The notes under the pieces are model-generated. The model searched no databases, was not told the DNA's origin, and saw nothing but the letters and a program-made list of their open reading frames with translations. From NCBI GenBank assembly GCA_004376385.1, contig SOJY01000063.1, positions 1 to 31,139 on the forward strand: DNA of 31,139 bases, read 5' to 3'. Positions 2,623-19,729 of the stretch are shown here, one piece after another. Each line of letters begins with the position of its first letter. Positions within the stretch are counted from its first letter, which is position 1. The position numbers and the translations under genes were made by a program. This DNA comes from Candidatus Bathyarchaeum sp. (GTDB lineage Archaea; Thermoproteota; Bathyarchaeia; Bathyarchaeales; Bathyarchaeaceae).

Positions 2623-3618
2623 TTAAAGCGCATCTATTATTGCGTCTGTAACCTGCTTTGTGGACGAAGAGCCTCCAAGGTCAGGAGTCAAAACTTTTCC
2701 TTCTTCCAGAACGGATACGACAGCTTTTTCGACGCGTTCAGCCCACCGGTTTTCGCCGAGATAATCCAGCATCATCTTAGACGCCAAAATAGCAGCCATA
2801 GGATTCGCAATTCCCCTTCCTGCAAGCCTAGGAGCAGAACCGTGAACAGGCTCAAACAGGGCATAATCTGCTCCTATGTTGGCGCTTGGAGCTAAACCTA
2901 ATCCTCCAACTAAACCCGCCGCCTCATCCGAGAGAATATCCCCGAAAAGGTTTGAGGTTACAATAACGTCGAAAATGTGAGGTTTAAGAACGAGCCTCAT
3001 GGCTGTAACGTCAACAAATGCCTCTTCCACTTCCACGTCAGGATAATCTTCCGCAACTTTGCGTGAAACCTCAAGAAATAGACCATCCGACTTACGCAAC
3101 ACATTCGCCTTAGTAACTACGGTCACCTTTTTGCGCCGCTTCATTGCCAAATCAAAAGCAAACCGTGTGATCAGTTCAGTCGCCTTTCTTGTGATTACCC
3201 TGAGGGTATAGGCAGAATCGGGCAGTTCAAACTCCATGCCGCTGTACAAGCCTTCTGTGTTCTCTCGCACAATCACCAAGTCAACATCTTTCATGCTTTT
3301 CTGAATAGGATAGCTCTTGGCGGGTCTAACATTAGCATATAATCCCAAGGCACGCCTCAACGTTATGATCGCGCTTTTGTAGCCAGGCACACCAACAGGA
3401 GTGGTGGTAGCCCCAAACAAGCAAGCTTGGGTCTTCCGTATTTCCGTTAAGACTTCATCAGGCACTGGAGTACCAGTTTTTTTGAAAACCTCGTACCCAA
3501 TCTCCATGTAACGGCAATCAAAAGTTAAGTCTGTGCTCTCCAGTAAACGGACAGCTTCAGGAACAACCTCAGCCCCAATTCCAGGACCCGGAATAACGGC
3601 TAGCTTATACGTTGTCAT
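2623..3618 (-). CDS. Homoisocitrate dehydrogenase (isocitrate/isopropylmalate dehydrogenase family)
   Basis: [53 protein letters not shown]; substrate assignment from the Lys-cluster context. Confidence 0.85.
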
Positions 3619-4090
3619 AGCCGTCGCTTCGGAGAAAGTTTACTAAACCGCCCTTCTCCACGATCCTCTGCATGAATTCGGGCAGCGGCTTCGCCTTGAG
3701 AACTATGTCCTTAGTTTTGTCGCGTACCTCACCAGTTTTGATGTTTATTTCAATGTCGTCGCCATCATCAATCTTGTCAGCGTCTTCACAAACAAAGAGC
3801 GGAAGCCCAATGTTTATGGAGTTCCTGAAGAAAATTCGGGCAAACGTTTTGGCTATAACTGCACTGACTCCCGCAGCCTTTATTGCCACAGGAGAATGTT
3901 CCCTAGATGAACCGCAGCCGAAGTTGCTTCCCGCAACTATAACGTCTCCCTCTTCTACTTCCTTAGCGAATTCTGGTCGGTACTCTATGAATGCTATTTC
4001 GCCTAACCGTTTCCTGTCGGTTGTAACAGTGTATCTTCCGGGCGTGATAACGTCTGTGTTTATGTCGTCTCCAAATTTCCATGCTCTCAT
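3605..4090 (-). CDS. hacB: Homoaconitase / isopropylmalate isomerase small subunit
   Basis: WKFGDDINTD.ITPGRY, NFGCGSSREH, FARIFFRNSINIGLP. Confidence 0.88.
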   Translation of the reverse strand: MRAWKFGDDINTDVITPGRYTVTTDRKRLGEIAFIEYRPEFAKEVEEGDVIVAGSNFGCGSSREHSPVAIKAAGVSAVIAKTFARIFFRNSINIGLPLFVCEDADKIDDGDDIEINIKTGEVRDKTKDIVLKAKPLPEFMQRIVEKGGLVNFLRSDGYDNV

Positions 4091-5334
4091 ATGTAATCCC
4101 TCGGATCAACAATCTTTCCGGTTAACGCGGCTGCCGCAACTGTTGCTGGAGAAGCTAAAATAATTTCCGCTTTCGGATGTCCCATTCTTCCAGTGAAGTT
4201 TCGGTTCTGGCTTGAAATACAAACCTCTCCCTCACACAATACTCCCTCGTGTCTACCTACGCAGGCGCCACAGCTGGGGTTGCATACGGTTGCACCCGCC
4301 GTAACTAGGTCCTGCAGGTAACCCTTCTCGAAGGCTGCAAAGTAAATATCCTCAGAAGCAGGAGAAATTATGAATCTAACGTTTCGGGCAATCTTTTTGC
4401 CTTTCAAGATTCTTGTAGCAACCTCGATGTCCTCTAATCTTCCGTTCGTGCATGTTCCCAGAAAGGCTTGATCTATGGGTTTTCCTTCAACCGCGGAGAC
4501 AGGCTCCACGTTGTCTACTACTGGAGGAAGCGCAACTTGAGGCTCAACATCTTCAACCTCTATCTCATATTCATCCGCGTAAACTGCATCTTTGTCGCTT
4601 CTGAAGATTTTTCCTGTTCTTCCTCCCAGAAAATCGAGTGTCTTCTGGTCAGCTTCAACTATGCCGTTTTTGCCTCCCATCTCAATAGCCATGTTACACA
4701 AGGTCAAACGGGAAGCGATGCTTGCGTTCTTCACGTAGTCTCCGGTGAACTCGCAGGCTTTGTAGAGGGCGCCGTCGGCTCTAACGTCTCCAACAATACT
4801 GAGGATAACGTCTTTGGTGTAGACACCTTTCTTTGTTGAGCCAGTTAAATTGAATTTTATGCTTTCAGGAACCTTGAACCAGCATTTTCCAGTAGCCATG
4901 GCTCCCCCAATGTCAGTTGACCCCAAACCAGTTGTGAAGGCGCCCAAGGCTCCTTCGGTGCAGGTGTGAGAATCAGCTCCAACAAGAACGTCTCCGGGAG
5001 CGATGAATTTTTCAACCAAAAGCTGGTGACAGACTCCGTTAGTGAAGAACCCAGAAAGGTTCTGGTCCATAACAAATTTTCTTGATTTTTGGTGCATAGT
5101 TGCTCCTGCTACAGTTGGCGCAGGAAAGAAGTGGTCGAACACGATTATGACGCGGTCTTTGTCGAAGACTTTGTCCGTGATTTTGTAGAAGCTTTCGATG
5201 GCTAAAGGTCCCGTGGAATCGTGGGCCATAGTATAGCTTACGTCGGCGACTACATAGTCTCCGGGAGCCACTTCTTTTTTGTGCGAAGCGTTGGCTAAGA
5301 TTTTTTCAGTTATTGTAGATGCCATCTTTTTCAA
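4087..5334 (-). CDS. hacA: Homoaconitase / isopropylmalate isomerase large subunit (start may be ATG 5325)
   Basis: DH, GVCHQ, GADSHTCT.GALG, LCNM..E.GGK, GTCTNGR and CGAC [4Fe-4S] cysteines, NRNF.GRMG. Confidence 0.9.
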   Translation of the reverse strand: MKKMASTITEKILANASHKKEVAPGDYVVADVSYTMAHDSTGPLAIESFYKITDKVFDKDRVIIVFDHFFPAPTVAGATMHQKSRKFVMDQNLSGFFTNGVCHQLLVEKFIAPGDVLVGADSHTCTEGALGAFTTGLGSTDIGGAMATGKCWFKVPESIKFNLTGSTKKGVYTKDVILSIVGDVRADGALYKACEFTGDYVKNASIASRLTLCNMAIEMGGKNGIVEADQKTLDFLGGRTGKIFRSDKDAVYADEYEIEVEDVEPQVALPPVVDNVEPVSAVEGKPIDQAFLGTCTNGRLEDIEVATRILKGKKIARNVRFIISPASEDIYFAAFEKGYLQDLVTAGATVCNPSCGACVGRHEGVLCEGEVCISSQNRNFTGRMGHPKAEIILASPATVAAAALTGKIVDPRDYI

Positions 5335-6572
5335 CTCTTTTCAATTTCACGTATTATTTCTTTAATTTCATCTGGAGTGTAGGAACTTCTTCGTCCATCG
5401 CGAGAAAAGGAGACCTTTACTCTCTCAAGAACCTTTCTCGCTGTCTCATCAGAGATTTTAAGACCCAACTCTTTTTCTGCCACAAAAATGATTCCGTGTC
5501 TTCCGCTAAGTTCATCTATGTACACTTTTCGTCTTTGACCCATCATCCTAGGCGGATAAAACTCGTATGTGGTCGGGTTAACGAGAACTCCATGCTGGTG
5601 TATGCCTGAACTGTGGGCGTTTACGTTATTTCCCGTCAACGGTTTGTGAGGAGGCATTCTTATTCCCGAAATCTCTTGAACAAGATTAGATAATGAAGTT
5701 AGTTGGCTCATCTCAAAGGAGCTTGCTCCATACAATATGTGCAGGGCAGGAATAATTTCTTCTGTCATTGTTATTCCCGCTCTTTCTCCTAAACCATTCA
5801 CAGATGTCGATACTGTTGATGCGCCAGCTTCTACAGATGCCAACGAATTTGCGAGAGCTAAACCAAGGTCGTTGTGGCAATGAACCTCGATTGGAATATC
5901 TATTTCTTTTCCGATTTCTCTGACTAGAAACGCCATTCCGTTTGGGCTTACGCATCCCAGAGTGTCAACGACTCTTGCTCGGTCTGCCCCTGCTTCCTCT
6001 GCTGTCTTGTAGGCTTTCTTCAAGAAATTCAGGTCGTTTTCTCGGGTTGTGTCCTCTGCGCTGTAGATGACAAAAAGCCCATAACTTTCTGCGTAACTGA
6101 TCATTTCAGTAAGCTTTTCCAGATACGTCTCTTTGCTCATGCCCTTGAACTTGTATTTCCGGTGATAAGGAGAAATGGAAAGGGACACCACGATGCCGTC
6201 GGCTCCGCTGTCCGCGACAACAGCAATATCCTCTTTTTTTGCGCGGGCGAAAGCGGATAGTTGAGCATCCAAATTCAGTTTAACTAGGGCGTCGACACAT
6301 TTTCTCTGTTTCTCTGAGGCGGCTGGGAATCCAGATTCTATCTGCGGTATCCCCACTTCATCCAGTTTCTTGGCGATTTTCAGTTTGTCTTCTATACTAA
6401 ATATTACGCCGGGGGTCTGTTCTCCCTCTCGTAGAGTGCTGTCATGAACAATATATTCGTCTAAGGAGGGAGCGTTGTAGTTAGCGAAGTTGTAGGGGCT
6501 TGAAAGAATACCTTCCCTTTTCAGTTTCTTTAGTAGCTTTTGCCCCTGTTCGTTAACATATTCTTCTTCCAC
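5331..6572 (-). CDS. Homocitrate synthase (DRE-TIM family, no IPMS regulatory domain)
   Basis: DSTLREGEQ, HCHND.G.A.AN, NGLGERAG, H.SGIH; GTG start with AGGAGG upstream; too short for the LeuA C-terminal domain. Confidence 0.82.
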   Translation of the reverse strand: MEEEYVNEQGQKLLKKLKREGILSSPYNFANYNAPSLDEYIVHDSTLREGEQTPGVIFSIEDKLKIAKKLDEVGIPQIESGFPAASEKQRKCVDALVKLNLDAQLSAFARAKKEDIAVVADSGADGIVVSLSISPYHRKYKFKGMSKETYLEKLTEMISYAESYGLFVIYSAEDTTRENDLNFLKKAYKTAEEAGADRARVVDTLGCVSPNGMAFLVREIGKEIDIPIEVHCHNDLGLALANSLASVEAGASTVSTSVNGLGERAGITMTEEIIPALHILYGASSFEMSQLTSLSNLVQEISGIRMPPHKPLTGNNVNAHSSGIHQHGVLVNPTTYEFYPPRMMGQRRKVYIDELSGRHGIIFVAEKELGLKISDETARKVLERVKVSFSRDGRRSSYTPDEIKEIIREIEKS

Positions 6573-6727: not shown

Positions 6728-7147
6728 TTACCAGCTGCGTAAGATTATCATGGTGTTTGTGTTGGAGACGCCCGTGAGTCGTCGTATCTTCTCAAGGCAG
6801 TCGTTGACCTCGGTTATGTTTAATCCTGATATGGTAACGGCGATGTCGTATTCTCCAGTGATCTCGTAGACTGTTTCCACGTTAGAGAACTGCTTGAGCG
6901 CTTTGGAAACATCCGAGGTCGGCAAAGACGGATCTACTGAAAGAAGAGCTATGGCTTCTGTGCCTTCTGTGAGTCCAACCTTGACGGTGAATCGCTGTAT
7001 TGTCCCCGAATCAACAAGGGCTTTGATTCTCTTCCGAACAGCTCCCTCAGACAAGCCAATTCTCTTTCCGATGTCGCTGTAGGTGGCTCGACCATCATGT
7101 TTCAGAATTTCGATTATCTCCTTGTCTGTATTATCCACTTTTTTCAC
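6728..7147 (-). CDS. lysM: Lrp/AsnC-family regulator, LysM type (start GTG 7147 or 7138 rather than 7246)
   Basis: D..D..IIEIL..DGR..Y..IG..IGLSEGAVRKRIK HTH; PT..VSK, VYE.TG.YDI and TNT.IILR.W C-terminus like Sulfolobus LysM; divergent from lysW. Confidence 0.85.
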   Translation of the reverse strand: MKKVDNTDKEIIEILKHDGRATYSDIGKRIGLSEGAVRKRIKALVDSGTIQRFTVKVGLTEGTEAIALLSVDPSLPTSDVSKALKQFSNVETVYEITGEYDIAVTISGLNITEVNDCLEKIRRLTGVSNTNTMIILRSW

Positions 7148-7295
7148 GCCCACTGTATTACAGTTGCGGAAAAATTTAACGGTTTCTGAACGTTTTGCAG
7201 CAGATTCGCAACGATTTCCGTATCCCGTCTCCCCTTTTCTCACCATAACTTGGAATATTTGTTGTTTGGATTTTTGACGGTTACAGCACCAATCC

Positions 7296-7365: not shown

Positions 7366-7411
7366 GCAACCTTTTCTATAAGGTTTCATCTAAACCAAAG
7401 AGGTGGAAGTT

Positions 7412-7588
7412 GTGAAAAAAGCCAACTGTCCCGATTGCGACGCGGAAATAGAAGTCCCAAATGACGTCATGAAAGGAGAGATTCTGAGCTGCCCAAGCTG
7501 CGGTCTTGAACTAGAAGTGACTGAAAACAAGGGAGATTCTGTGGAGCTAAAAGAATTAGGAATTGAAGGGGAAGACTGGGGAGAATAG
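7412..7588 (+). CDS. lysW: LysW amino-group carrier protein (start GTG 7412 after the GAGGTG SD; track starts at 7403)
   Basis: CPDC...CPSCG zinc finger, acidic, invariant C-terminal EDWGE. Confidence 0.97.
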   Translation: MKKANCPDCDAEIEVPNDVMKGEILSCPSCGLELEVTENKGDSVELKELGIEGEDWGE

Positions 7589-7600
7589 GTTCCCCTCATC

Positions 7601-7618
7601 ATTTTCTTTTTATTGTTT
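7601..7618 (+). terminator. T-rich tract after lysW, possible leaky archaeal terminator
   Basis: ATTTTCTTTTTATTGTTT 12 nt after the lysW stop. Confidence 0.35.
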
Positions 7619-7697
7619 ACATGCGAAACAAAAAAGAGGCAGACCGAGAAACATCTATGGATCATAAAACGTTTGAAGCAAGGATGTAAGAACAGAT

Positions 7698-8879
7698 ATG
7701 AGCATCGGAATTTTGTTTGAGAGCTCCGAAACCGACGAAAAAGGCATCAAAATGACTGCAGAAGAAATGGGAATAGACTTAACGTACATCCCCTTCCGCA
7801 AAGTTGCAATTCGTCTAGACAAAAACGGTTACAGCCTTCGAACCAAAGGAAAAGATTACACAAACATTCTCAAAGACATCACAGTAGTGTTAAACAGGGC
7901 ACAAAGCAAGAACCGCAGGCTCTTCGCAGCCAACATTCTGGAGGCTTTCGGTAAACACGTGATAAACCCTCAATGCGTAGAATACGCCTGCTTCAGCAAG
8001 TTGAGGACATTACTTCATTTTTGGAAGGCTGGAATTAGGATTCCTGACACAGTTTATGTTCCAGTTGATCCTAACGAAAAAACATTGGATGGACGGGAGG
8101 TACATAACGAGGAAGACATAGCTGACTTGATGCAGCAGGAACTTGACAATAACATTGTAATCAAACCGGACGCTGGAACTCATGGAAAAAGCGTTAAACT
8201 CGCTAAAGAACGTGAAGAACTATTAAGTATTATCAGGGAAGTTGAGCCCTCGATAATTAATCCTGTGGGTGTTCTCGCCCAAAATCTTGTCCAGAAATGG
8301 TTCTATGACCTGAGAATAATAGTCACTAAAGAGTATGGAAAACAGCCATACTGTTATCCCACAGCGTTAGCGCGAGCGGGATTCAAGGATTTCAGGACAA
8401 ACACTTTCTTGGGCAACATGGTTATTGGAGTAAATTTGCCTCAGCACATTAGAGATGTTTCAGCTAAATGTGGTGCAGCCATTGGCGGAGACAGCGAAGC
8501 CTATGTTTTGGCTTTTGATGCAATGGTTGATGTGGGCGACAACAAAATCGTTGACGACGAGTATCTTAAAGCAGAGTTTGATAAGCTTGAGCCTTCTTTT
8601 GATGCTGTGAAAAACGTTAAGCGGGATAAAACTAAGAGGACAAACTTTCCAGAATGGAACAAGAAACTGGAAGCGGCTTTTGAAGACTACAAGAACCAAG
8701 ATGCTTACTTGAACATCAAGAATGTTATCGAAGAGAACATGGAAAAGAACAAACAAAAAATCATGTTCCATGAAACTAATGCGTGTCCCGAATTTTGGGA
8801 ACAAACTAGATTGGCTGCTGGGATAGATTTGGCAGAGGCACTGCTTAAAGGAGCCCAGAGCATTATAGACTCTGAATAG
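7698..8879 (+). CDS. lysX: Atypical LysX/ArgX-like ATP-grasp ligase with large insertions
   Basis: Aligns by eye with LysX (ILFES.ETDEK, VLNR, VIN, IP.T, VIKP..GTHG, Q..V.K..DLR, R....FRTN, FD...E.N..PEF); directly after lysW; 393 aa versus ~280 usual. Confidence 0.8.
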   Translation: MSIGILFESSETDEKGIKMTAEEMGIDLTYIPFRKVAIRLDKNGYSLRTKGKDYTNILKDITVVLNRAQSKNRRLFAANILEAFGKHVINPQCVEYACFSKLRTLLHFWKAGIRIPDTVYVPVDPNEKTLDGREVHNEEDIADLMQQELDNNIVIKPDAGTHGKSVKLAKEREELLSIIREVEPSIINPVGVLAQNLVQKWFYDLRIIVTKEYGKQPYCYPTALARAGFKDFRTNTFLGNMVIGVNLPQHIRDVSAKCGAAIGGDSEAYVLAFDAMVDVGDNKIVDDEYLKAEFDKLEPSFDAVKNVKRDKTKRTNFPEWNKKLEAAFEDYKNQDAYLNIKNVIEENMEKNKQKIMFHETNACPEFWEQTRLAAGIDLAEALLKGAQSIIDSE

Positions 8880-8890
8880 AGGAGAACAAA

Positions 8891-9943
8891 ATGAGGGTTG
8901 GAGTAATTGGCGGCTCAGGATATGTGGGTGGAGAACTAGTAAGGCTGTTGCTTCCCCATCCAGAAGTTGAATTAACAACAGTAACATCCCGCGCAAACGC
9001 CGGAGAATTCCTCTTTACGGTTCACCCAAACCTCAGAGGAGCCACACAACTAAAATTCAGTCCCCCAGACATTTCCAACGTCACCAAAAACTGTGACTTA
9101 GTGTTTGCTGCGATGCCCCACGGCAAATCAGTGAACCTCGTTCCGCAACTCCTTGAAACAGGAGTAAAAGTCATCGACATGAGCGCAGATTACCGCCTGA
9201 ACAACCCCGACGATTACGACAAGTGGTATGGATGGAAGCACACTCATCCAGAACTGCTAAAGGAAGCAGTTTACGGTTTACCTGAGCTTCACCGCGAAGA
9301 AATCAAGAACGCAAAACTGATAGGCTGTCCGGGATGCATGTCCACAGCTACGATTCTGGGATTGGCGCCTCTCGTAAAGGCGGGTGTAATAGAGAAGAAC
9401 AGGATAGTGGCTGATGTGAAGATTGGTTCGTCTGGTGCAGGTCAAAAACCCACTGTTGCGTCTCATCATCCTGAAAGAGCTGGAGGCGTGAGACCCTACA
9501 AGGTAGTGGGGCACAGGCACCTAGCAGAGGTCGAACAAGAACTAAACCTGCTAACAGACGAAAAGGTAACAGTATCTTTCACACCCCACGCAGTCAACAT
9601 GATTCGCGGAATTCTTTCAACAATTCATGCTTTCCTCAAAAAACCCTTGACAACAAAGGATGTCTGGAAACTTTACCGCTCCCAGTATCAAAACGAACAT
9701 TTCATACGCTTTGTTAAATTCAAGAAGGGACCTTACCAGCTGCCAAACCCCAAAGTTACGATGGGAACAAACTATGTTGACATCGGCTTTGAGTTAGATC
9801 CTCGCGCAAAAAGGATAATCGTGTTTTCTGCGATTGATAACCTCATGAGGGGTGCGTCTGGTCAAGGTGTTCAGTGTATGAATGTTATGCTCGGTGTAGA
9901 CGAAACAACTGGGCTAGAATGTCAAGGTTATCATCCGATGTGA
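8891..9943 (+). CDS. lysY: LysW-gamma-aminoadipyl/glutamyl-phosphate reductase (ArgC family)
   Basis: GGSGYVGGEL, IDMSADYRL, YGLPEL, PGC, SGAG, HRH..E, DNL.RGASGQ. Confidence 0.93.
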   Translation: MRVGVIGGSGYVGGELVRLLLPHPEVELTTVTSRANAGEFLFTVHPNLRGATQLKFSPPDISNVTKNCDLVFAAMPHGKSVNLVPQLLETGVKVIDMSADYRLNNPDDYDKWYGWKHTHPELLKEAVYGLPELHREEIKNAKLIGCPGCMSTATILGLAPLVKAGVIEKNRIVADVKIGSSGAGQKPTVASHHPERAGGVRPYKVVGHRHLAEVEQELNLLTDEKVTVSFTPHAVNMIRGILSTIHAFLKKPLTTKDVWKLYRSQYQNEHFIRFVKFKKGPYQLPNPKVTMGTNYVDIGFELDPRAKRIIVFSAIDNLMRGASGQGVQCMNVMLGVDETTGLECQGYHPM

Positions 9944-9951
9944 TAAAAAAG

Positions 9952-10758
9952 ATGCTGATTGTAGTTAAGGTTGGCGGGAGCATCCTCAAAGAGGTGCCGC
10001 CCGAAGTAGTAGCAGACATAAAGAATGTTCTTTCTGAACACCAGTTGGTTCTGGTTCATGGCGGAGGAAAAGGCGTCACAGAAATCGCCTCAAAACTAGG
10101 CAAGGAACAAAAGTTCGTGTTTTCGCCTACCGGCTTCCGCAGCAGATACACAGACAAGGAGACCATGGAAATCTTCACGATGGTTATGGCTGGACGAATC
10201 AACAAGAAACTCGTTTCAGCCCTACAGAAACAGGAGATACCGGTTGTGGGTCTCTCAGGCTTGGATGGCTATCTTTTGCGGGCAGAACGAAAGAAGCGTC
10301 TGGTTATAGTTGATGAGCGGGGAAGAAAACGGGTTATTGATGGCGGATACACAGGAAAAGTTCGCCAAGTTAACGCTTCTTTGCTACAGCTATTACTGGA
10401 GAACGGTTATGTACCGCTGGTTTCTCCGATTGCGGTGAGCGAGGAGTTTGAGCCGCTAAACGTGGATGCTGACCGGACCGCAGCCAATATCGCTGGGGCT
10501 TTGAATGCAGATAAGCTGATTCTGTTGACTGATGTAGAAGGCTTAAAGTTGGATGGCAAGCTGGTGTCGAAGCTGTCTGTTTCTGAGGTTGAGACTGCTC
10601 TTCCAAAGATTGGAGGCGGCATGATTACCAAGGTTTACGCTGCCAAAGAAGCTTTGAATCAGGGTGTTGGCGAAGTGGTTATCGGTTCTGGCGTCAGGAA
10701 GAATCCGATTTCTTCGGCTCTAAAACATGTAGGTGGTACGGTGATAAGCCGTGAATGA
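9952..10758 (+). CDS. lysZ: LysW-aminoadipate/glutamate kinase (ArgB family); start ATG 9952 or GTG 9940 rather than 9874
   Basis: VVKVGGS, VHGGG, SRYTD, GYTGKV, NVDADR.A, LTDVEG, GGM..K. Confidence 0.92.
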   Translation: MLIVVKVGGSILKEVPPEVVADIKNVLSEHQLVLVHGGGKGVTEIASKLGKEQKFVFSPTGFRSRYTDKETMEIFTMVMAGRINKKLVSALQKQEIPVVGLSGLDGYLLRAERKKRLVIVDERGRKRVIDGGYTGKVRQVNASLLQLLLENGYVPLVSPIAVSEEFEPLNVDADRTAANIAGALNADKLILLTDVEGLKLDGKLVSKLSVSEVETALPKIGGGMITKVYAAKEALNQGVGEVVIGSGVRKNPISSALKHVGGTVISRE

Positions 10759-11935
10759 AAAACAGATAGTTGAACTTGAAGAAAAAATTATGGCAAACAC
10801 CTTCGCTAAACGAGGCCTTGTTATCACACGGGGCAAGGGAGCCCTAGTTTGGGACATCAACGGCAAAGAGTATATAGACTGCACAGGCAGCTACGGAGTC
10901 GCTGTTGTTGGTCACTGTCACCCAAGAGTTGTGGAGGCGGTGCAGAGGCAAGTGGAAACGCTCATTGCATGTCACGCATCATTCTATAACGATGCCCGAT
11001 CAGAGCTTCTAGAGAAGCTTATCGGTATAGCTCCTAAGGGATTGGACAGGGTTTTTCTTTCTAACAGCGGCGCTGAATCAGTTGAGTGCGCCATCAAGTT
11101 GGCTAGGAAATATTCGGGTAAACATGAGATGATTGCCATGGTGGGGGCGTTTCACGGTAAGACAATGGGTGCCCTTTCTGCAACTTGGAAAAAGAAGTAT
11201 CGGGCTCCTTTCATGCCTTTGGTTCCGGGCTTCAAGCATGTTCCTCCAAACAATCTTGAAAAGGTGAAAGAGGCGATTACGGATAAGACGGCTGCGGTTC
11301 TTGTGGAACCTATTCGTGGAGAGAGCGGAGTCAGAGTTAATTCGGATGATTTTCTTCCTGGACTGCGGGAAATCTGTGACGAGAAAGATGTTCTGCTAAT
11401 CTTTGATGAGGTGCAGACTGGTTTTGGTCGCACAGGAAAAGTTTTCGCCTGTGAACACTGGAATGTGGTTCCTGACATTATGTGTCTTGCGAAGTCTGTT
11501 GCTGGCGGTTTGCCTATGGGAGCAACGTTTGCGAGGGAAGATGTTATGGCGGCTTTCAAGCGTGGAGAGCATTCTAGCACGTTTAGTGGTAATCCTTTGG
11601 TTTGTGCTGCGGCGAGTGCTGCAATAGATGTGCTAATCGAAGAGAAACTTCCCGAGCGGGCGGCGACCAATGGAAATTACTTCAAGGGCAAGCTAGAAGC
11701 TTTAGCTGAGAAGCATAGGATTGTCAGGGAGGTTCGCGGTTTGGGTCTCATGCTTGGGGTGGAGATGCGGTTTGACGTTTACAATATACTGCTTGATTGC
11801 ATGGAGCAAGGCGTTCTTGTTTTGGATGCTGGAAGGAATGTTGTAAGGTTTCTGCCGCCGCTGGTTATCGAGAAGGAGCAGATCGACAAGGTAGTTAAGG
11901 CTCTGGATGCGGCTATGGAGAAGGAGAACAAATGA
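10751..11935 (+). CDS. lysJ: LysW-semialdehyde aminotransferase (ArgD / class III PLP)
   Basis: YID..GSYGV..GH.HP, NSGAE..E.A.K, FHGKTMG, EPI.GE.G, DEVQTGFGRTG, LAKS.AGG, H.STF.GNP. Confidence 0.93.
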   Translation: MNEKQIVELEEKIMANTFAKRGLVITRGKGALVWDINGKEYIDCTGSYGVAVVGHCHPRVVEAVQRQVETLIACHASFYNDARSELLEKLIGIAPKGLDRVFLSNSGAESVECAIKLARKYSGKHEMIAMVGAFHGKTMGALSATWKKKYRAPFMPLVPGFKHVPPNNLEKVKEAITDKTAAVLVEPIRGESGVRVNSDDFLPGLREICDEKDVLLIFDEVQTGFGRTGKVFACEHWNVVPDIMCLAKSVAGGLPMGATFAREDVMAAFKRGEHSSTFSGNPLVCAAASAAIDVLIEEKLPERAATNGNYFKGKLEALAEKHRIVREVRGLGLMLGVEMRFDVYNILLDCMEQGVLVLDAGRNVVRFLPPLVIEKEQIDKVVKALDAAMEKENK

Positions 11936-13059
11936 GCGACTACGCAGTTGATCTGTTGACGCGTATTGTAAAGATTTACAGTCCGTCAGGCAAGGAAGAG
12001 GAGATTTCCTTGTTCTTGGTTGATGAGATGACGAAGCTTGGTTTTCGTGTTCACATGGACAAAGTTGGAAATGTGATAGGTGAAGTTGGTGAGGGCTCTC
12101 CTGTTATTTTGTTGTGTGGACACATGGACACTGTTGAAGGAGAGATTCCTGTCCGTGTTGAGGATGGACAATTGTATGGTAGGGGCTCGGTGGATGCGAA
12201 GGGTCCTTTGGCTGCTATGATTGTTGCTGCTTCCAAGTTTGTGAATGGCGGTTTTCCGGGTAAGATTCTTGTTGTTGGAGTGGTTGATGAGGAGAAGGGA
12301 GGAACAGGGATTCAGCATTTTGTTGAGGAAGGAATTCAGCCTGATTACGCCATTTTTGGTGAGCCGAGCGGCTTGGAGAAGATTGTTTTCGGTTATAAGG
12401 GTATTTTAACTGTGAAGCTTACTGTTGAGACGCCTTCGGGTCATTCTGCTGCTCCTTGGCTGTTTGACAACGCGATTGAGAAGGCTATGGAGTTTTGGAG
12501 GCAGATTCGTAAGCTCCATTTGCGTGAAGAGAAGCTGAAGAGCCGCTTCTACTCGATTACTTCATGTTTGACTGGGATTAAGGGCGGCAACAGTTCTGCT
12601 TCGTTTATTCCGTCTCATTGTGAGATTCTTGTTCAGTTGCGTATTCCGCCTCAGCTTACTCCCGAGCAAGTGTTTGATGAGGTGAAACGAAAGATTGACA
12701 GGTACAAGGCAACTAACCCGAAGGTTACGGTTAGTGTGGATATGGTGGATGTTGCTAAAGCCTATGAAGCTGACCGCAGATCAGTTATTGTCCGTGCTTT
12801 GGCTTGGGGCATAAGAAAGACGACACTGAATTATGCTTCTTTTTCGCGGAAGACGGGAACGGGCGACATGAATGTTCTTGGTAATGTATTGAAGATTCCG
12901 GTGGTTACATATGGACCAGGAGACTCACGGCTAGACCACACACCCAACGAGCATATTGACATCCAAGAATACTTGGATAGCATAGAGGTACTAAAAAAAG
13001 TGTTAACAAAGTTGCCTGACTTCGTAAAAAGGCAACAGACCAAGAAAACAAACAAGTGA
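11932..13059 (+). CDS. lysK: LysW-lysine/ornithine hydrolase (M20/ArgE family)
   Basis: GHMDTV, GRGSVDAKG, VDEE, GEPS, GH.A.P, GT.DMN, YGPGD..LDHTPNEH. Confidence 0.92.
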   Translation: MSDYAVDLLTRIVKIYSPSGKEEEISLFLVDEMTKLGFRVHMDKVGNVIGEVGEGSPVILLCGHMDTVEGEIPVRVEDGQLYGRGSVDAKGPLAAMIVAASKFVNGGFPGKILVVGVVDEEKGGTGIQHFVEEGIQPDYAIFGEPSGLEKIVFGYKGILTVKLTVETPSGHSAAPWLFDNAIEKAMEFWRQIRKLHLREEKLKSRFYSITSCLTGIKGGNSSASFIPSHCEILVQLRIPPQLTPEQVFDEVKRKIDRYKATNPKVTVSVDMVDVAKAYEADRRSVIVRALAWGIRKTTLNYASFSRKTGTGDMNVLGNVLKIPVVTYGPGDSRLDHTPNEHIDIQEYLDSIEVLKKVLTKLPDFVKRQQTKKTNK

Positions 13060-13605: not shown

Positions 13606-14046
13606 CTATAGGTCGAATGAGGTTTTGATCTTTATGAGACGCGTGGCTGCAGAAAGCGACACTTCCCTGACTCCCGGCATCATTTCGACTCTTTTTCTGA
13701 GGTCGCTTAGGTGCTCCAGATCGTGCGCATGAACCACTGCCACGATGTTGTATTCGCCGGTGTTCTGGAAAACGTGATAGGCTTCGGTTAAGTCGCTTAT
13801 TTGCTCGGACGTTTTTTCGAAGTGGTCAGGAGCTATCTTGACCATCAGTATGCCTGTTGTAGAGTATCCGATCTTTTTGGGATTAAGCAACACCGTGAAT
13901 TTGTTGATGATGCCATTGTCGATTAAGTTTTTGACGCGGTATCTTACTGTAGCCTCGCTGATTCCCAACTCGTTGGCTATATGCGTGTAAGAAGTTCTTG
14001 AATTCTCCTGAAGCAAATTCAAGATTCTCCTGTCCTTATCATCCAA
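13606..14046 (-). CDS. Second Lrp/AsnC-family regulator (start TTG 14046 rather than 14091)
   Basis: LDDKDRRILNLLQENSR.SY..IA.ELGISEATVRYRVKNL HTH; TG.Y..V RAM domain; divergent from pheA. Confidence 0.88.
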   Translation of the reverse strand: MDDKDRRILNLLQENSRTSYTHIANELGISEATVRYRVKNLIDNGIINKFTVLLNPKKIGYSTTGILMVKIAPDHFEKTSEQISDLTEAYHVFQNTGEYNIVAVVHAHDLEHLSDLRKRVEMMPGVREVSLSAATRLIKIKTSFDL

Positions 14047-14247
14047 CCGAAACACCAACAACACCCACCATAGACAACAACAAAAAAACATTTATTACTA
14101 TCGCACAAACCACAAACTACTGTTCAAATTTTCCTGTTCAACACTTTGGAAAACATCGTAATTTGCTGGAAACCTTGCCAGTTTTTGTGGTAAAGTGTTT
14201 TATTTTGGCTTTCATGTCAGATATTAGAATGGAATGGTGTGTTTGTG

Positions 14248-15078
14248 TTGCGGGTTGCTTTTCAGGGAGAACTTGGCGCTTATAGTGAGAGTGCAGTTTA
14301 CAGTTTTTTTGGTCAGTCTGCTGAGGTGAAGCCCTGCAAAAGCTTTGGTGATGTCTTCGAAAGTGTCAAAACTGGAGACGTAGATTATGGGGTTGTTCCC
14401 ATCGAAAACTCTATCGAGGGCAGCGTAAACCGCACCTACGACCTCTTCCTAGAATATGATCTGAAAGTCTGCGGCGAAATAATCATCAGAATCAGTCACT
14501 GCCTCATAGCCCACAAAGGAACCAGCATAGACTCGATCAAAAACGTCTATAGCCATCCCCAAGCCTTAGCACAATGTAGAAAATTTCTAGAACAGCATAA
14601 GCTCAAGGCAATCTCTACTTTTGATACTGCAGGCAGCGTAAAGATGATTAAAGAAGAAAACATGATGGACGCCGCAGCAATAGCCAGCGAAAGAGCCGCC
14701 CAAATCTACGACATGACCATACTCGCAAAAGAGATAGAGGACATCAAAAACAACTCCACCAGATTCTTTGTCCTAGACAAGCAGGACTCGTCCTATTCTG
14801 GAGAAGACAAAACATCCATAATTTTTGCAACCAAATCGATTCCCGGGGCATTATACAAGATATTGGGAGAGTTTGCTGACAGAAACATAAACCTAAGCAA
14901 GATAGAGTCTAGACCCACCAAGCAGACTCCATGGGAGTACCACTTCTATCTAGATTTTGAGGGGCACAGAACCGAAACAAAATGCCAAGAAGCCCTAGAA
15001 AGCATCAAAGACAAAACAATCTTTGTAAAAATCTTGGGCTCCTACAAGGCAGCCAAAAAACCCAACTTCAAACTCTAG
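14248..15078 (+). CDS. pheA: Prephenate dehydratase with ACT domain (start TTG 14248 or GTG 14239)
   Basis: AFQG..GAYSE, VPIENS.EGSV, SHPQAL.QC, TRF, PGAL...L..F....INLSKIESRP. Confidence 0.95.
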   Translation: MRVAFQGELGAYSESAVYSFFGQSAEVKPCKSFGDVFESVKTGDVDYGVVPIENSIEGSVNRTYDLFLEYDLKVCGEIIIRISHCLIAHKGTSIDSIKNVYSHPQALAQCRKFLEQHKLKAISTFDTAGSVKMIKEENMMDAAAIASERAAQIYDMTILAKEIEDIKNNSTRFFVLDKQDSSYSGEDKTSIIFATKSIPGALYKILGEFADRNINLSKIESRPTKQTPWEYHFYLDFEGHRTETKCQEALESIKDKTIFVKILGSYKAAKKPNFKL

Positions 15079-15944
15079 GAATCATCCAAAAGCCGATACA
15101 TAGCCCGATAAGCACGTTCATACTCAGGGTCTAATTCACGCAACCGCTTCTTAACCTGCCCCATCTTACGGCTGAAACCAGCACAATCCTTACTCTTCAC
15201 CATCCTGAGCCACTCTTCAACCTTACTCAAAAACAAGCCCTCAATCTTCTCCATCTCAGGCAAGCTCATGTGAAGATTCGAATAGAAAACAGGCTCCTCA
15301 GAAGAAACAGCCTCCGCCAAAGTCAACAACAACTTATACGTGGCTCCACCCACCGCTTTCGCATCAACAAAGTTAGGATTATTCATTAGAGTGTCGCCGG
15401 CAACCAAACCCACAAAATGAGGAAAACCCAAAACCAAAGACATCAACTCATCATGTTTTCTAGGCGACAAAACAGACACCACGGCTCCACACTTCTCCAG
15501 CCAGCCCCTGAACTCGCCAGCAAACCGTTTCTCCTCATCGCCTACGGGAGTAAGAACAAAATTCTGTCCCTCAAGACTTCTTGCGCCGGGACCAAAAACA
15601 GGATGCGTCCCCAACGTAACACCATGCTCCACATGCTTGTGTAGCAGATTCACGGGAATCTCTTTGATAGAGCCGATGTCCATGACAACCTGATCTGGGC
15701 GCACATGAGAACCAATCTCCCTCAAAACAGCATCTAAGCTGTCAAGAGATACACACAACAAAATCCAGTCAGCATTATCAACAGCCTCCACGTTGCTGCG
15801 GGCTACATCAACCCCAAACTCAGCCCTTAACGCCTCTGCCTTGCTTCGGGTTCGGCTAGAAACAACTACAGAAAAGCCTTCTTCACGGAATAACTTTGTG
15901 AACCATTGACCCATCTTTCCAGCGCCAATAATCGCTACTCTCAA
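15075..15944 (-). CDS. tyrA: Prephenate dehydrogenase
   Basis: IIGAGKMG Rossmann motif, DIGSIK, HPVFGP, HD..M...LG.PH. Confidence 0.92.
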   Translation of the reverse strand: MRVAIIGAGKMGQWFTKLFREEGFSVVVSSRTRSKAEALRAEFGVDVARSNVEAVDNADWILLCVSLDSLDAVLREIGSHVRPDQVVMDIGSIKEIPVNLLHKHVEHGVTLGTHPVFGPGARSLEGQNFVLTPVGDEEKRFAGEFRGWLEKCGAVVSVLSPRKHDELMSLVLGFPHFVGLVAGDTLMNNPNFVDAKAVGGATYKLLLTLAEAVSSEEPVFYSNLHMSLPEMEKIEGLFLSKVEEWLRMVKSKDCAGFSRKMGQVKKRLRELDPEYERAYRAMYRLLDDS

Positions 15945-17357: not shown

Positions 17358-18468
17358 CAGCCTCAACTCCCAACACCTTAGGTATCAAACCTGCCCGAAG
17401 CAGCTGATCAACCAAAACCATGGCAACAGAAGCCTCAACAACAGGAACAGCCTTCGGCACAATACACGAATCATGCCTGCCCTTAACATGAATCGTTGTA
17501 TCTGCCATATTCAACATGTCCACGGTCTTTTGCTCCTTCGAAATAGATGGAGTCGGCTTCACAGCCACCCTAACCACAATGGGCATCCCAGACGATAAAC
17601 CACCCAAGACACCGCCAGCATTATTGGTTACAGCCTCGATTTCTCCATCCCGTATCACATATGAATCATTATTCTCTGACCCCTTCAGCCGTGCAGCCTC
17701 AAATCCAACGCCAAACTCAACACCTTTAACAGCGGGAATATCAAAAAGCATCTTTGCAAGTTCTGCATCCAACGAATCAAAGATGGGTTCACCGACCCCC
17801 GCCAAAACATTGGATGCTACACACTCAACAACTCCACCCACGCTGTCACCCATCTTCTTAGCCTTCAAAATCGTTTCCTCCATCTCAACAGCAACCTTTG
17901 GGTCTGGGCACCTCACCGAGCTTCCATAAGTCTTCTCCCTAATGTCCTCAAGAGACTGTGTTGACCGCATTTTGACGCCTCCAATCTCAGTGGCGTATGC
18001 TAGAACTTCGATGCCGGCAAGCTCCAGCAGTTTCTTGGCTATAGCACCAGCCATAACAAAAGCAACTGTGATTCTGCCCGAGAATCTTCCTCCACCCCGA
18101 TGATCATTAAATCCTAAATACTTGATTCTGGCGGGATAGTCTGCGTGTCCGGGTCTAGGAGTATGCCTTATTGCATCGTAATCGTCAGAAATAACTTCCT
18201 TGTTCCACACCAAAACGCAGATTGGAGCACCAGTTGTAAATCCCTCATAGATGCCCGACAGAATCTCAACAGCGTCTTCTTCTCTTCTGGCAGAAACAAT
18301 CTCCTCTTTTTTGGGTAACCGTTTGTCAAGTTCTTTCTGGATATCCTCTTCGTTTAAAGGAAGTCCCGCTGGACACCCATCTATGACTACTCCGACGCAT
18401 CTGCCGTGGCTTTCGCCGAAGCAGGTTACAACGAATTCTTTTCCTATCGAATTAGATCCCAACGACAT
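17323..18468 (-). CDS. aroC: Chorismate synthase
   Basis: GESHG, RPGHADY, GGGR.SGR.T, NNAGG..GG.S.G, KPTPSI, GRHD.CI. Confidence 0.96.
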   Translation of the reverse strand: MSLGSNSIGKEFVVTCFGESHGRCVGVVIDGCPAGLPLNEEDIQKELDKRLPKKEEIVSARREEDAVEILSGIYEGFTTGAPICVLVWNKEVISDDYDAIRHTPRPGHADYPARIKYLGFNDHRGGGRFSGRITVAFVMAGAIAKKLLELAGIEVLAYATEIGGVKMRSTQSLEDIREKTYGSSVRCPDPKVAVEMEETILKAKKMGDSVGGVVECVASNVLAGVGEPIFDSLDAELAKMLFDIPAVKGVEFGVGFEAARLKGSENNDSYVIRDGEIEAVTNNAGGVLGGLSSGMPIVVRVAVKPTPSISKEQKTVDMLNMADTTIHVKGRHDSCIVPKAVPVVEASVAMVLVDQLLRAGLIPKVLGVEAVGEYSDVTEED

Positions 18469-19729
18469 TCGCTCCTAACACACGCAGATCACTGAAGAAC
18501 TGCGGATACGACTTATTTATGCATTCAACATTTTGAATTTTCGTTTCGCCCACGGCTCCAAGAGCCGCTACGGCACAAGCCATGGCGATCCGATGGTCAT
18601 TGTGGGGATCAATAGTCGCCCCATGCAATCCAGATGAACCGTTTATGGTTAAGCCGTCCTCGTTCACGACGATGTCTGCCCCCATCTTCTTCAGTTCTGT
18701 GCTTATCGAATCTAGTCTATCTGATTCCTTGTATCTAAGCCGCTTCGCATTATATATCTCCGAACGTCCCTCAGCGTAACACGCAAGAACAGCACAGACA
18801 GGAACCAAATCTGGAATATCCTTCGCGTCGATATCAACCCCAACAAGCTGGCCCCCTTCAACATCTACAGAATTGTCTCTTATCTTCACTGCTGCACCCA
18901 TCTCCTCAAGGATACTTACTATCGCCCTGTCGCCCTGAGCCGTTTGATACTCAAGATTCTTCACTGTTACCCGTGATGAAGTAACCGCCGCGGCTGCCAA
19001 AAGGAAAGCTGCAGACGAAAAATCTCCAGGAACAGTATGATCACATGGTCTATAACTTTGATTTGAGGGAATCCACAGGCACGAAAGCTCAGGGTTTACA
19101 GCACCTTCAAGTCCATGCTCAACCAATACTTCAAAGGTCATCTCAACGTAGCCCTTAGACTCCAGCTTAGTTGTTACAGCAATTTCCGTGTCTTCGTTTG
19201 CCTTTGGACAAGCAAACAGTAATCCAGAAATGAATTGGGAGCTTATGTCTCCCCTTATCGAAGTTTTTCCTCCACGGATTCCCCCTCCACGAACCATAAC
19301 AGATGAATTGTTTCTTTGAATAGTAGATTCGACTCCCAGTTCCTTGAGGCTTTCAAGAAGGGGCGCCACAGGTCTTCGTTCAAAGGATGCCCCAAAAAGG
19401 AATGTTGAATGTCCGGGTGCAAGGGCTGCAACTGGAATCATGAAACGCAGTGTTGACCCAGACTCTCTGCAATCTATCGGATGATCAGGAGTCTTGAGTG
19501 TTTCTTGTCCATGGATTGTCCAATAATTTTCATGTAATTCTGTTTCTGCCCCAAGGGATTTTACTGCCTCTAGGGTTGCTTGGGTGTCATCCGAGATGAG
19601 TGGATTGAAGATTTTTGAGGCTCCATTTGACAATGATGCGGCTATGAGCATCCGGTGAGTGTAAGCTTTTGATGGAGGAGCCGAGACCACACCATCCAGA
19701 TGATCTGTGTTCTCGACTGTAACATCCAT
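18452..19729 (-). CDS. aroA: EPSP synthase
   Basis: PPSK..THR, ESGSTLRF, RRP, SSQF.SGLL, GD.SSA.F, PDL.P, LR.KESDR, DHRIAMA, KSYP.F. Confidence 0.96.
   Translation of the reverse strand: MDVTVENTDHLDGVVSAPPSKAYTHRMLIAASLSNGASKIFNPLISDDTQATLEAVKSLGAETELHENYWTIHGQETLKTPDHPIDCRESGSTLRFMIPVAALAPGHSTFLFGASFERRPVAPLLESLKELGVESTIQRNNSSVMVRGGGIRGGKTSIRGDISSQFISGLLFACPKANEDTEIAVTTKLESKGYVEMTFEVLVEHGLEGAVNPELSCLWIPSNQSYRPCDHTVPGDFSSAAFLLAAAAVTSSRVTVKNLEYQTAQGDRAIVSILEEMGAAVKIRDNSVDVEGGQLVGVDIDAKDIPDLVPVCAVLACYAEGRSEIYNAKRLRYKESDRLDSISTELKKMGADIVVNEDGLTINGSSGLHGATIDPHNDHRIAMACAVAALGAVGETKIQNVECINKSYPQFFSDLRVLGANVVGI

Follow-up and report, generated by a model that had tools for sequence, protein, structure and literature searches.

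A stretch of 31,139 nucleotides from Candidatus Bathyarchaeum sp. (GenBank assembly GCA_004376385.1, contig SOJY01000063.1, positions 1 to 31,139; hereafter the window) raises the question of whether a gene that lies where lysX is expected, between lysW and lysY, but carries a long insertion between its metal ligands, is the working LysX of the organism, which amino acid it would attach to the carrier protein LysW, and what the insertion is for. LysX is an ATP-grasp ligase that uses ATP to activate the γ-carboxyl of the C-terminal glutamate of LysW, which it then joins to the α-amino group of α-aminoadipate (AAA) as the opening step of the LysW-carried lysine route. The open reading frame (ORF) at 7698..8879 (+ strand, as for all coordinates below unless marked) translates without stops into 393 amino acids, and its best Foldseek matches and its operon predict a LysW:AAA (probably also glutamate) ATP-grasp ligase, here called the long form. 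We consider it probable that this gene is the working LysX of its genome, likely a bifunctional LysX/ArgX, and that it belongs to an old clade with a rigid helical bundle; in this clade, the β-turn between the Mg-ligand strands would have been swapped for a three-helix bundle and two smaller inserts added.

Structure prediction gave an ATP-grasp fold with a LysX-type pre-ATP-grasp N-terminal domain. The AlphaFold2 model, built on a 14-sequence alignment, had a mean predicted local distance difference test score (pLDDT) of 91.5 and a predicted template modelling (pTM) score of 0.90, and the independently predicted ESM Atlas model of a 55-member Bathyarchaeota cluster superimposes on it with a template modelling (TM) score of 0.97 and a root-mean-square deviation of 1.5 Å over all 393 residues. 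When compared to known structures using Foldseek, the top 12 matches were all LysX/ArgX chains, the best PDB matches being LysX from Thermus thermophilus (Tt), ArgX from Sulfolobus/Sulfurisphaera tokodaii and LysX/ArgX from Thermococcus kodakarensis (target TM 0.81–0.91); the query TM of about 0.6 to these structures reflects that the core alone is covered.

In a profile alignment to Tt LysX (PDB 3VPD/1UC8), D237 was paired with D274 (8517..8519), the first Mg ligand, and E249-x-N251 with the Mg ligands in E359-T-N361 (8772..8780). The spacing of 84 residues between these sites, reported in a preliminary description of the locus, was reproduced and compares to 11 in Tt LysX, corresponding to a net insertion of 73 amino acids. 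The motif readings of that description also stood: GSWG of canonical LysX is replaced by G160-T-H-G163 (8175..8186), the WITN/WRAN signature by F232-R-T-N235, and EFK(N/G) by the substrate loop E365-F-W-E-Q-T370 (8790..8807), in which W367 is a one-residue insertion and Q369-T370 correspond to Tt signature positions 258/259. Two smaller inserts suspected at the same time proved to be real and specific to the long form, one comprising residues ~122–137 after PDTVYV (8061..8108), modelled by AlphaFold2 as a β-hairpin, and the other adding about five residues within positions 212–221 near TKEYGKQPY (8331..8360). When long, canonical and MptN-like forms were aligned, K101, K156, G160, G163, D204, R206, N235, D274, E359 and N361 were invariant, and alignments with distant homologues, canonical LysX-like proteins of ~285 amino acids and solved LysX/ArgX chains showed the complete set of ATP-grasp nucleotide, Mg and catalytic residues in the long form. 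The GTHG motif, which reads as the Gly-rich nucleotide loop in a version peculiar to Bathyarchaeia, is invariant across 81 Bathyarchaeia species; other long forms have GSWG, GSRG or GSEG.

The long form in place of canonical LysX

No canonical lysX was found in the window's own genome or in four sister genomes (one closed, same genus), nor was canonical LysX (TIGR02144, E ≤ 1e-60) detected in families f1, f2, f10, f22 and f27 or in the sampled genomes of f33 and f37, the family counts from f1 to f56 being drawn from 400 genomes of the phylum. A literature search gave no description of the insert: no paper was found on this LysX form, on any insertion in LysX, or of relevance to LysX together with Bathyarchaeota, and the paper on Bathyarchaeum tardum (PMC10477458) does not discuss lysine or arginine synthesis. 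The long form has intact catalytic residues and is a real, conserved and undescribed structural variant of LysX that is predicted to be functional.

In the genomes checked, the long form occurs together with LysW, and those without LysW have no long form. Four Bathyarchaeia genomes that are 98–100% complete (G141, G264, G013 and G133) lack both LysW and the long form but retain an MptN-like paralogue with an unchanged score of about 270 bits; the long form is therefore tied to LysW. In f22, f27 and f37, an X gene is missing from the lysW-lysZ-lysK operon and the long form is encoded elsewhere in the genome, in f22 adjoining genes for homocitrate synthase and an Lrp regulator. In f56 (G344), where a canonical copy is also kept, it adjoins genes for homoaconitase and homoisocitrate dehydrogenase.

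The gene had been described as the only LysX, which holds in that no other LysX was found, but the genome does encode a second RimK-family protein of 292 amino acids (contig C269 of the window's assembly, 18087-18941 (-), equivalent to positions 1480-2358 of locus L001), whose gene adjoins fdhD. This protein scored best against MptN, with 272 bits being below the cut-off of 350. Since MptN-like genes are retained in near-complete relatives without LysW, a hidden ArgX could be ruled out for this protein, which is probably a cofactor glutamate ligase. A third ATP-grasp gene, encoding 407 amino acids in B. tardum, was also considered and rejected, as its product is an unrelated ATP-grasp_3 protein from a hydantoinase and amino-acid-kinase cluster. 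In that cluster (locus L128, G162:C1, 3195-6146 (-)), ATP-grasp_3/preATP-grasp_3, hydantoinase_A-like and amino-acid-kinase-family proteins are encoded together, and it looks like a biosynthesis module for a cofactor of the methanofuran type.

The long form is widespread among Bathyarchaeia. Searched exhaustively with HMMER, 1.84 billion representatives gave only 91 matches at E ≤ 1e-3, of which the full-length ones are 356–395 amino acids long and 20–47% identical, canonical LysX representatives appearing only at E ~1e-4. About 1,650 cluster representatives (90% identity) match, almost all of 390–400 amino acids and from Bathyarchaeota metagenome-assembled genomes, and the CPEFWEQ / KPDAGTHG form is encoded in at least 144 Bathyarchaeia species genomes. 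Close loci are labelled Candidatus Bathyarchaeum, including the closed genome of B. tardum M17C-01, while more distant insert-bearing members carry the labels Bathyarchaeota B24 lineage, Nitrososphaerota, Geothermarchaeales, Thorarchaeota and Odinarchaeia. Within the phylum, the families with full-length matches are f1 (this genus only), f2, f10, f19, f22, f27, f33, f37 and f56; the remaining lineages have canonical forms of ~286 amino acids that match the profile only as far as the insert.

Phylogeny separated the two types. In an IQ-TREE analysis of 40 rows and 285 columns, with the insert columns removed and four long-branch rows omitted, 16 long and 23 canonical forms were separated by a branch that had 100/99 support, and a quick tree of all 44 rows agreed with this split. 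It is thus safe to place the long forms apart from all canonical LysX/ArgX sampled, and the distinct subfamily proposed in the preliminary description is borne out by this split together with conservation across many lineages. A position as sister clade of canonical LysX/ArgX is provisional because the root was set by a single long-branch outgroup.

Still longer proteins (representatives P0156, P0158 and P0162; 414–434 amino acids) form a subgroup within the long-form clade, beside an Odinarchaeia-labelled member, and match the query only to about residue 260, so the insert may be larger or different in them. Members of another cluster (P0230, 47% identical) are labelled Candidatus Thorarchaeota in NCBI, a label that could stem from mis-binning or from transfer of the gene between Bathyarchaeia and Asgard archaea.

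Substrate signature and pathway content

A five-residue signature at Tt positions 182, 192, 203 and 258–259 has been described, reading F-I-T-NS in LysX, I-Y-V-GF in ArgX and Y-I-T-NA in bifunctional enzymes, and the F182I variant of Tt LysX loads both AAA and glutamate (PMC12998189). The long form of the window reads I-L-T-QT (I208, L224, T236 and Q369/T370), which is conserved in 81 Bathyarchaeia species. Compared to the LysX signature, positions 192, 203 and 259 are conservative or identical, whereas N is replaced by Q at 258 (N in most other long forms) and F by I at 182. The ArgX signature is not matched, as only I at 182 agrees, with T rather than V at 203 and Q rather than G at 258; the bifunctional signature has the T and an N-like residue in common with the long form but differs at 182. 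Positions 203 and 259 are T in all long forms, and position 258 is N, Q or H in nearly all of them. The substrate pocket is predicted to be of LysX type, and the phrase "rewritten specificity motifs" used earlier was an overstatement, given a LysX-like signature with T at 203 and Q/N-T at 258/259.

In genomes with two canonical copies, one reads F-I-T-NT and the other combines V or I at 203 with G at 258. G at 258, together with I at 203, also marks the canonical copies found beside long forms, in f19 (G071 and G135) and f56 (G344), as being of ArgX type; in the tree, the two f19 copies cluster with ArgX-type copies of Sulfolobales, and that of G071 is found in an argG-lysW-lysX arrangement. 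Because these coexisting copies are of ArgX type, the two ligases would have different roles, and in any genome with a second ligase the long form is predicted to fill the LysX role.

At this G071 locus (L027, contig C44, 4772-13993), argG, lysW and the canonical ArgX-type ligase are followed, after about 3 kb, by lysY-Z-J-K, and the gap holds an ORF with a LAGLIDADG domain and two ORFs without a Pfam match. The long form of the same genome is on a separate contig, adjoining a gene for ribulose-phosphate 3-epimerase. Two other genomes of the same order or class as the window genome (G197 in f3, locus L120; G240 in f9, locus L121) have a single canonical ligase and no long form; their ligases, with G at 258 and either V or L at 203, carry an ArgX-type signature, by which such Bathyarchaeia may use LysW for arginine only.

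In the genus of the window, exactly one ArgB-type and one ArgC-type gene scored above cut-off, both in this operon, ArgJ was not found, and argG is present. LysZ matches the equivalog of bifunctional AAA/glutamate kinases. The genus thus has the gene content of the bifunctional type, namely a sole LysW ligase, one LysZ/LysY set, and argG and ornithine carbamoyltransferase (OTC) in the absence of ArgJ, and the ligase therefore most likely loads glutamate too. From this gene content, ornithine is most likely synthesized via the same LysW operon, and a dual AAA/glutamate ligase, one of the options raised in the preliminary description and made plausible also by the Ile at position 182, is likely, which would act as a bifunctional LysX/ArgX as in T. 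kodakarensis.

The three-helix insert and rival readings

The insert comprises residues 279–354 (76 residues; 8532..8759), by alignment slightly more than the ~8540-8755 first proposed, and forms a three-helix bundle (H287–308, H312–332 and H335–350) that stands in place of the β-turn linking the strand of D274 to that of E359-x-N361. The pLDDT of the insert blocks in the AlphaFold2 model was 92–97, with a kink in helix 312–332, and all three helices were retained when the insert was folded alone (pLDDT 79.5). Its length is fixed and gap-free in 81 Bathyarchaeia species, in which F317, W320, L324, E325 and Y337 are invariant and K296, N321 and I344 are at least 95% conserved, although the mean identity to the query is lower in the insert (55%) than in the core (68%). 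The insert can be aligned even in homologues of just 20–30% identity, with Y337 invariant among distant members. Since both its length and its alignability are maintained, the insert is no chance feature, and its alignment across distant members shows that it predates their divergence. Its net charge is about -1.

Searches with the insert itself gave no relative. Foldseek with the insert alone, a check put forward in the preliminary description, returned generic helical hairpins only (all E ≥ 3) and no meaningful analogue in the PDB. Every score in a language-model feature search with the insert was below 0.9, i.e. at chance level, and among AlphaFold DB clusters no representative covered the insert (best query TM 0.64).

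In ATP-grasp topology, the residues right after the first and right before the second Mg ligand line the adenine pocket. By analogy, the Mg-ligand hairpin would carry the insert at its far end, on the adenine side of the nucleotide and about 15 Å or more from the amino-acid pocket. The hairpin tip would extend past the adenine end, where its neighbour would be the mobile central domain rather than the amino-acid loop. As the insert would lie far from the amino-acid pocket, we infer a structural, oligomerisation or partner-contact module and no determinant of the choice between AAA and glutamate.

The insert could instead be a regulatory or docking domain, which docks the globular domain of LysW or a downstream enzyme (LysZ/LysY) so that the carrier is channelled, or senses lysine or arginine so that AAA and glutamate loading stay balanced in a shared pathway. 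The conserved polar or charged residues E293, K296, K308, D310, N321 and E325, the basic loop RDKTKRTN (+3) and the confident fixation of the bundle to the core in both the AlphaFold2 and ESM Atlas models are in agreement with such a function, and flux would have to be controlled if one ligase fed two pathways (cf. the discussion in PMC12998189). We nevertheless regard this as unlikely, as the net charge is not the basic surface expected for binding of the acidic LysW, neither Foldseek nor the feature search found similarity to any known ligand-binding or regulatory domain, the long forms of f19 and f56 keep the insert despite a separate ArgX-type ligase, and the hairpin tip would point away from the substrate and LysW entry side. 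It is similarly improbable that the bundle serves an ancient, deep-branching LysX lineage as a module for control or docking, be it an allosteric or partner-binding element that divides one LysW ligase between the lysine (AAA) and arginine (glutamate) branches or one that passes LysW to LysZ/LysY; if it did, the clade would keep a separate early solution to the shared lysine/arginine carrier pathway.

A different kind of doubt concerns the activity. The very low scores against LysX models, the long branch that sets the clade apart from canonical LysX/ArgX and the members unlinked to lysW would suit a clade that is no LysX and uses another substrate or carrier, merely lying beside lysine genes. 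This we judge very improbable, in view of the strict co-occurrence with LysW in the genomes checked, the lineages in which the long form is the only ligase available to an otherwise complete LysW-Y-Z-J-K set, the AAA-branch genes that even unlinked members adjoin, and the combination of the LysX/ArgX fold and pre-ATP-grasp domain with a LysX-type pocket. A strict AAA ligase, functioning as LysX only with ornithine and arginine made or acquired otherwise, is rather unlikely. In its favour, every long form has LysX-type residues at positions 203 and 258/259, the coexisting second ligase is ArgX-type, and amino acids could be imported by the organism, which uses proteinaceous substrates for growth (PMC10477458); against it, the genus lacks ArgJ and any second ArgB- or ArgC-type gene while retaining argG and OTC, its only other RimK-family protein is independent of LysW, position 182 holds the Ile that gave Tt LysX glutamate activity, and LysZ matches the bifunctional equivalog.

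Several observations weigh against our preferred reading of a working, likely bifunctional LysX with a structural insert. The protein scored 82.5 bits against the NCBIfam model TIGR02144 (LysX_arch), far below the cut-off of 275.6 and over profile positions 1–232 of 281 only, the model being interrupted by the insert and the core having diverged. The Pfam family LysX_preATP_grasp (PF22626) was matched with 26.3 bits, slightly below its cut-off of 27, although it is on record for most homologues; RimK (PF08443) was matched with 33 bits. Identity to solved LysX/ArgX structures is only 15–19%. The case for a dual ligase is drawn from genome content, and OTC, which is encoded in three sister genomes, was not found in the window's own 79%-complete assembly. 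Where the insert would lie with respect to the active site and LysW was deduced from general ATP-grasp topology, and the outgroup that roots the tree is the genome's own MptN-like protein. Metatranscriptome contigs with ~99% identity span 7711-8145 and 8433-8655, the latter reaching into the start of the insert, but these few short contigs, with DNA carry-over possible, are weak evidence of expression.

Gene neighbourhood and comparison with known systems

The complete lysW-X-Y-Z-J-K operon, as initially described, is present in the window. It starts with lysW (7403..7588), the sole copy in the genome, encoding a zinc-ribbon amino-group carrier protein with a C-terminal EDWGE tail. After the long form, profile matches identify lysY (ArgC-type reductase; 8891..9943), lysZ ([LysW]-aminoadipate/[LysW]-glutamate kinase; 9874..10758; NF010662, 313 bits, cut-off 194), lysJ (class III aminotransferase; 10751..11935) and lysK ([LysW]-lysine hydrolase of the M20 family; 11932..13059; NF003367, 365.8 bits, cut-off 363). 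A divergent Lrp/AsnC regulator gene (6728..7246 (-)) adjoins lysW and is kept in Bathyarchaeia, as is the order Lrp, lysW-X-Y-Z(-J-K). Upstream of and divergent from the operon, the AAA branch is encoded at 2623..6572 (-), comprising homocitrate synthase (5331-6572 (-)), the large (4087-5334 (-)) and small (3605-4090 (-)) subunits of homoaconitase, and homoisocitrate dehydrogenase (2623-3618 (-)).

The lysZ ORF as listed has a GTG start at 9874 and a 70-nucleotide overlap with lysY. As LysZ/ArgB homology starts only at about residue 27–28, the true start is probably downstream, near 9950. With 61 amino acids and a GTG start at 7403 or 7412, LysW is small enough for gene callers to overlook; the 91-amino-acid ORF antisense to it (7390-7665 (-)), without a Pfam match, is a shadow frame and no gene. 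Downstream of the operon are a second Lrp/AsnC regulator gene (13606-14091 (-)) and then genes for prephenate dehydratase (14239-15078) and prephenate dehydrogenase (15075-15944 (-)), with which an aromatic amino-acid block begins. An Rfam scan of the window gave no match.

Bathyarchaeia are among the most abundant archaea of anoxic sediments, and since standard annotation models miss the long form because of its helical bundle, automatic annotation labels the gene as hypothetical or as a generic ATP-grasp protein and the lysine/arginine pathway wrongly appears incomplete. With this clade, the debate on the origin of carrier-protein-based lysine and arginine synthesis from a bifunctional ancestor gains a third deep lineage. 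The comparative pattern offers a testable prediction, with long forms being LysX-type and coexisting canonical copies ArgX-type; a cultivated relative exists in Bathyarchaeum tardum, and the long-form protein should express easily.

Among characterized systems, LysX of T. thermophilus (PDB 1UC8, 1UC9 and 3VPD) has the same three-domain ATP-grasp fold with a pre-ATP-grasp domain (target TM 0.87–0.91), the same Mg ligands and catalytic Lys and Arg, the same position beside lysW, and T at 203 and the N-like/T pair at 258/259 in agreement with the long form. In contrast, identity is only 17–19%, and the long form adds the 73-amino-acid three-helix insert and two smaller ones, has GTHG for GSWG, Ile for Phe at 182 and the extra W367, scores below the TIGR02144 cut-off and lies across the 100/99 split in the tree. 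The RimK, MptN and CofF α-L-glutamate ligases belong to the same RimK-type ATP-grasp superfamily (Pfam PF08443), but the long form scores low against MptN (35 bits) and CofF (28 bits), reaches 87.9 bits against the RimK model TIGR00768 (cut-off 143.4) and has no Rimk_N (PF18030) match; the actual MptN-like gene of the genome encodes the separate 292-amino-acid protein, also kept in genomes without LysW.

ArgX of S. tokodaii (PDB 3VPB and 3VPC) resembles the long form in fold (target TM 0.85–0.86), in the predicted use of LysW and in Ile at 182, whereas its I-Y-V-GF signature is not shared at 192, 203 and 258/259. The LysX/ArgX of T. kodakarensis (TK0278; PDB 5K2M) is likewise a single LysW ligase that serves lysine and ornithine with one LysZ/LysY/LysJ/LysK set, and has T203, an N258-like residue and the fold (target TM 0.81–0.82) in common with the long form. 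With 273 amino acids it has no insert, and its signature is Y-I-T-NA as compared to I-L-T-QT in the Bathyarchaeum enzyme, for which bifunctionality is predicted from the content of the genome.

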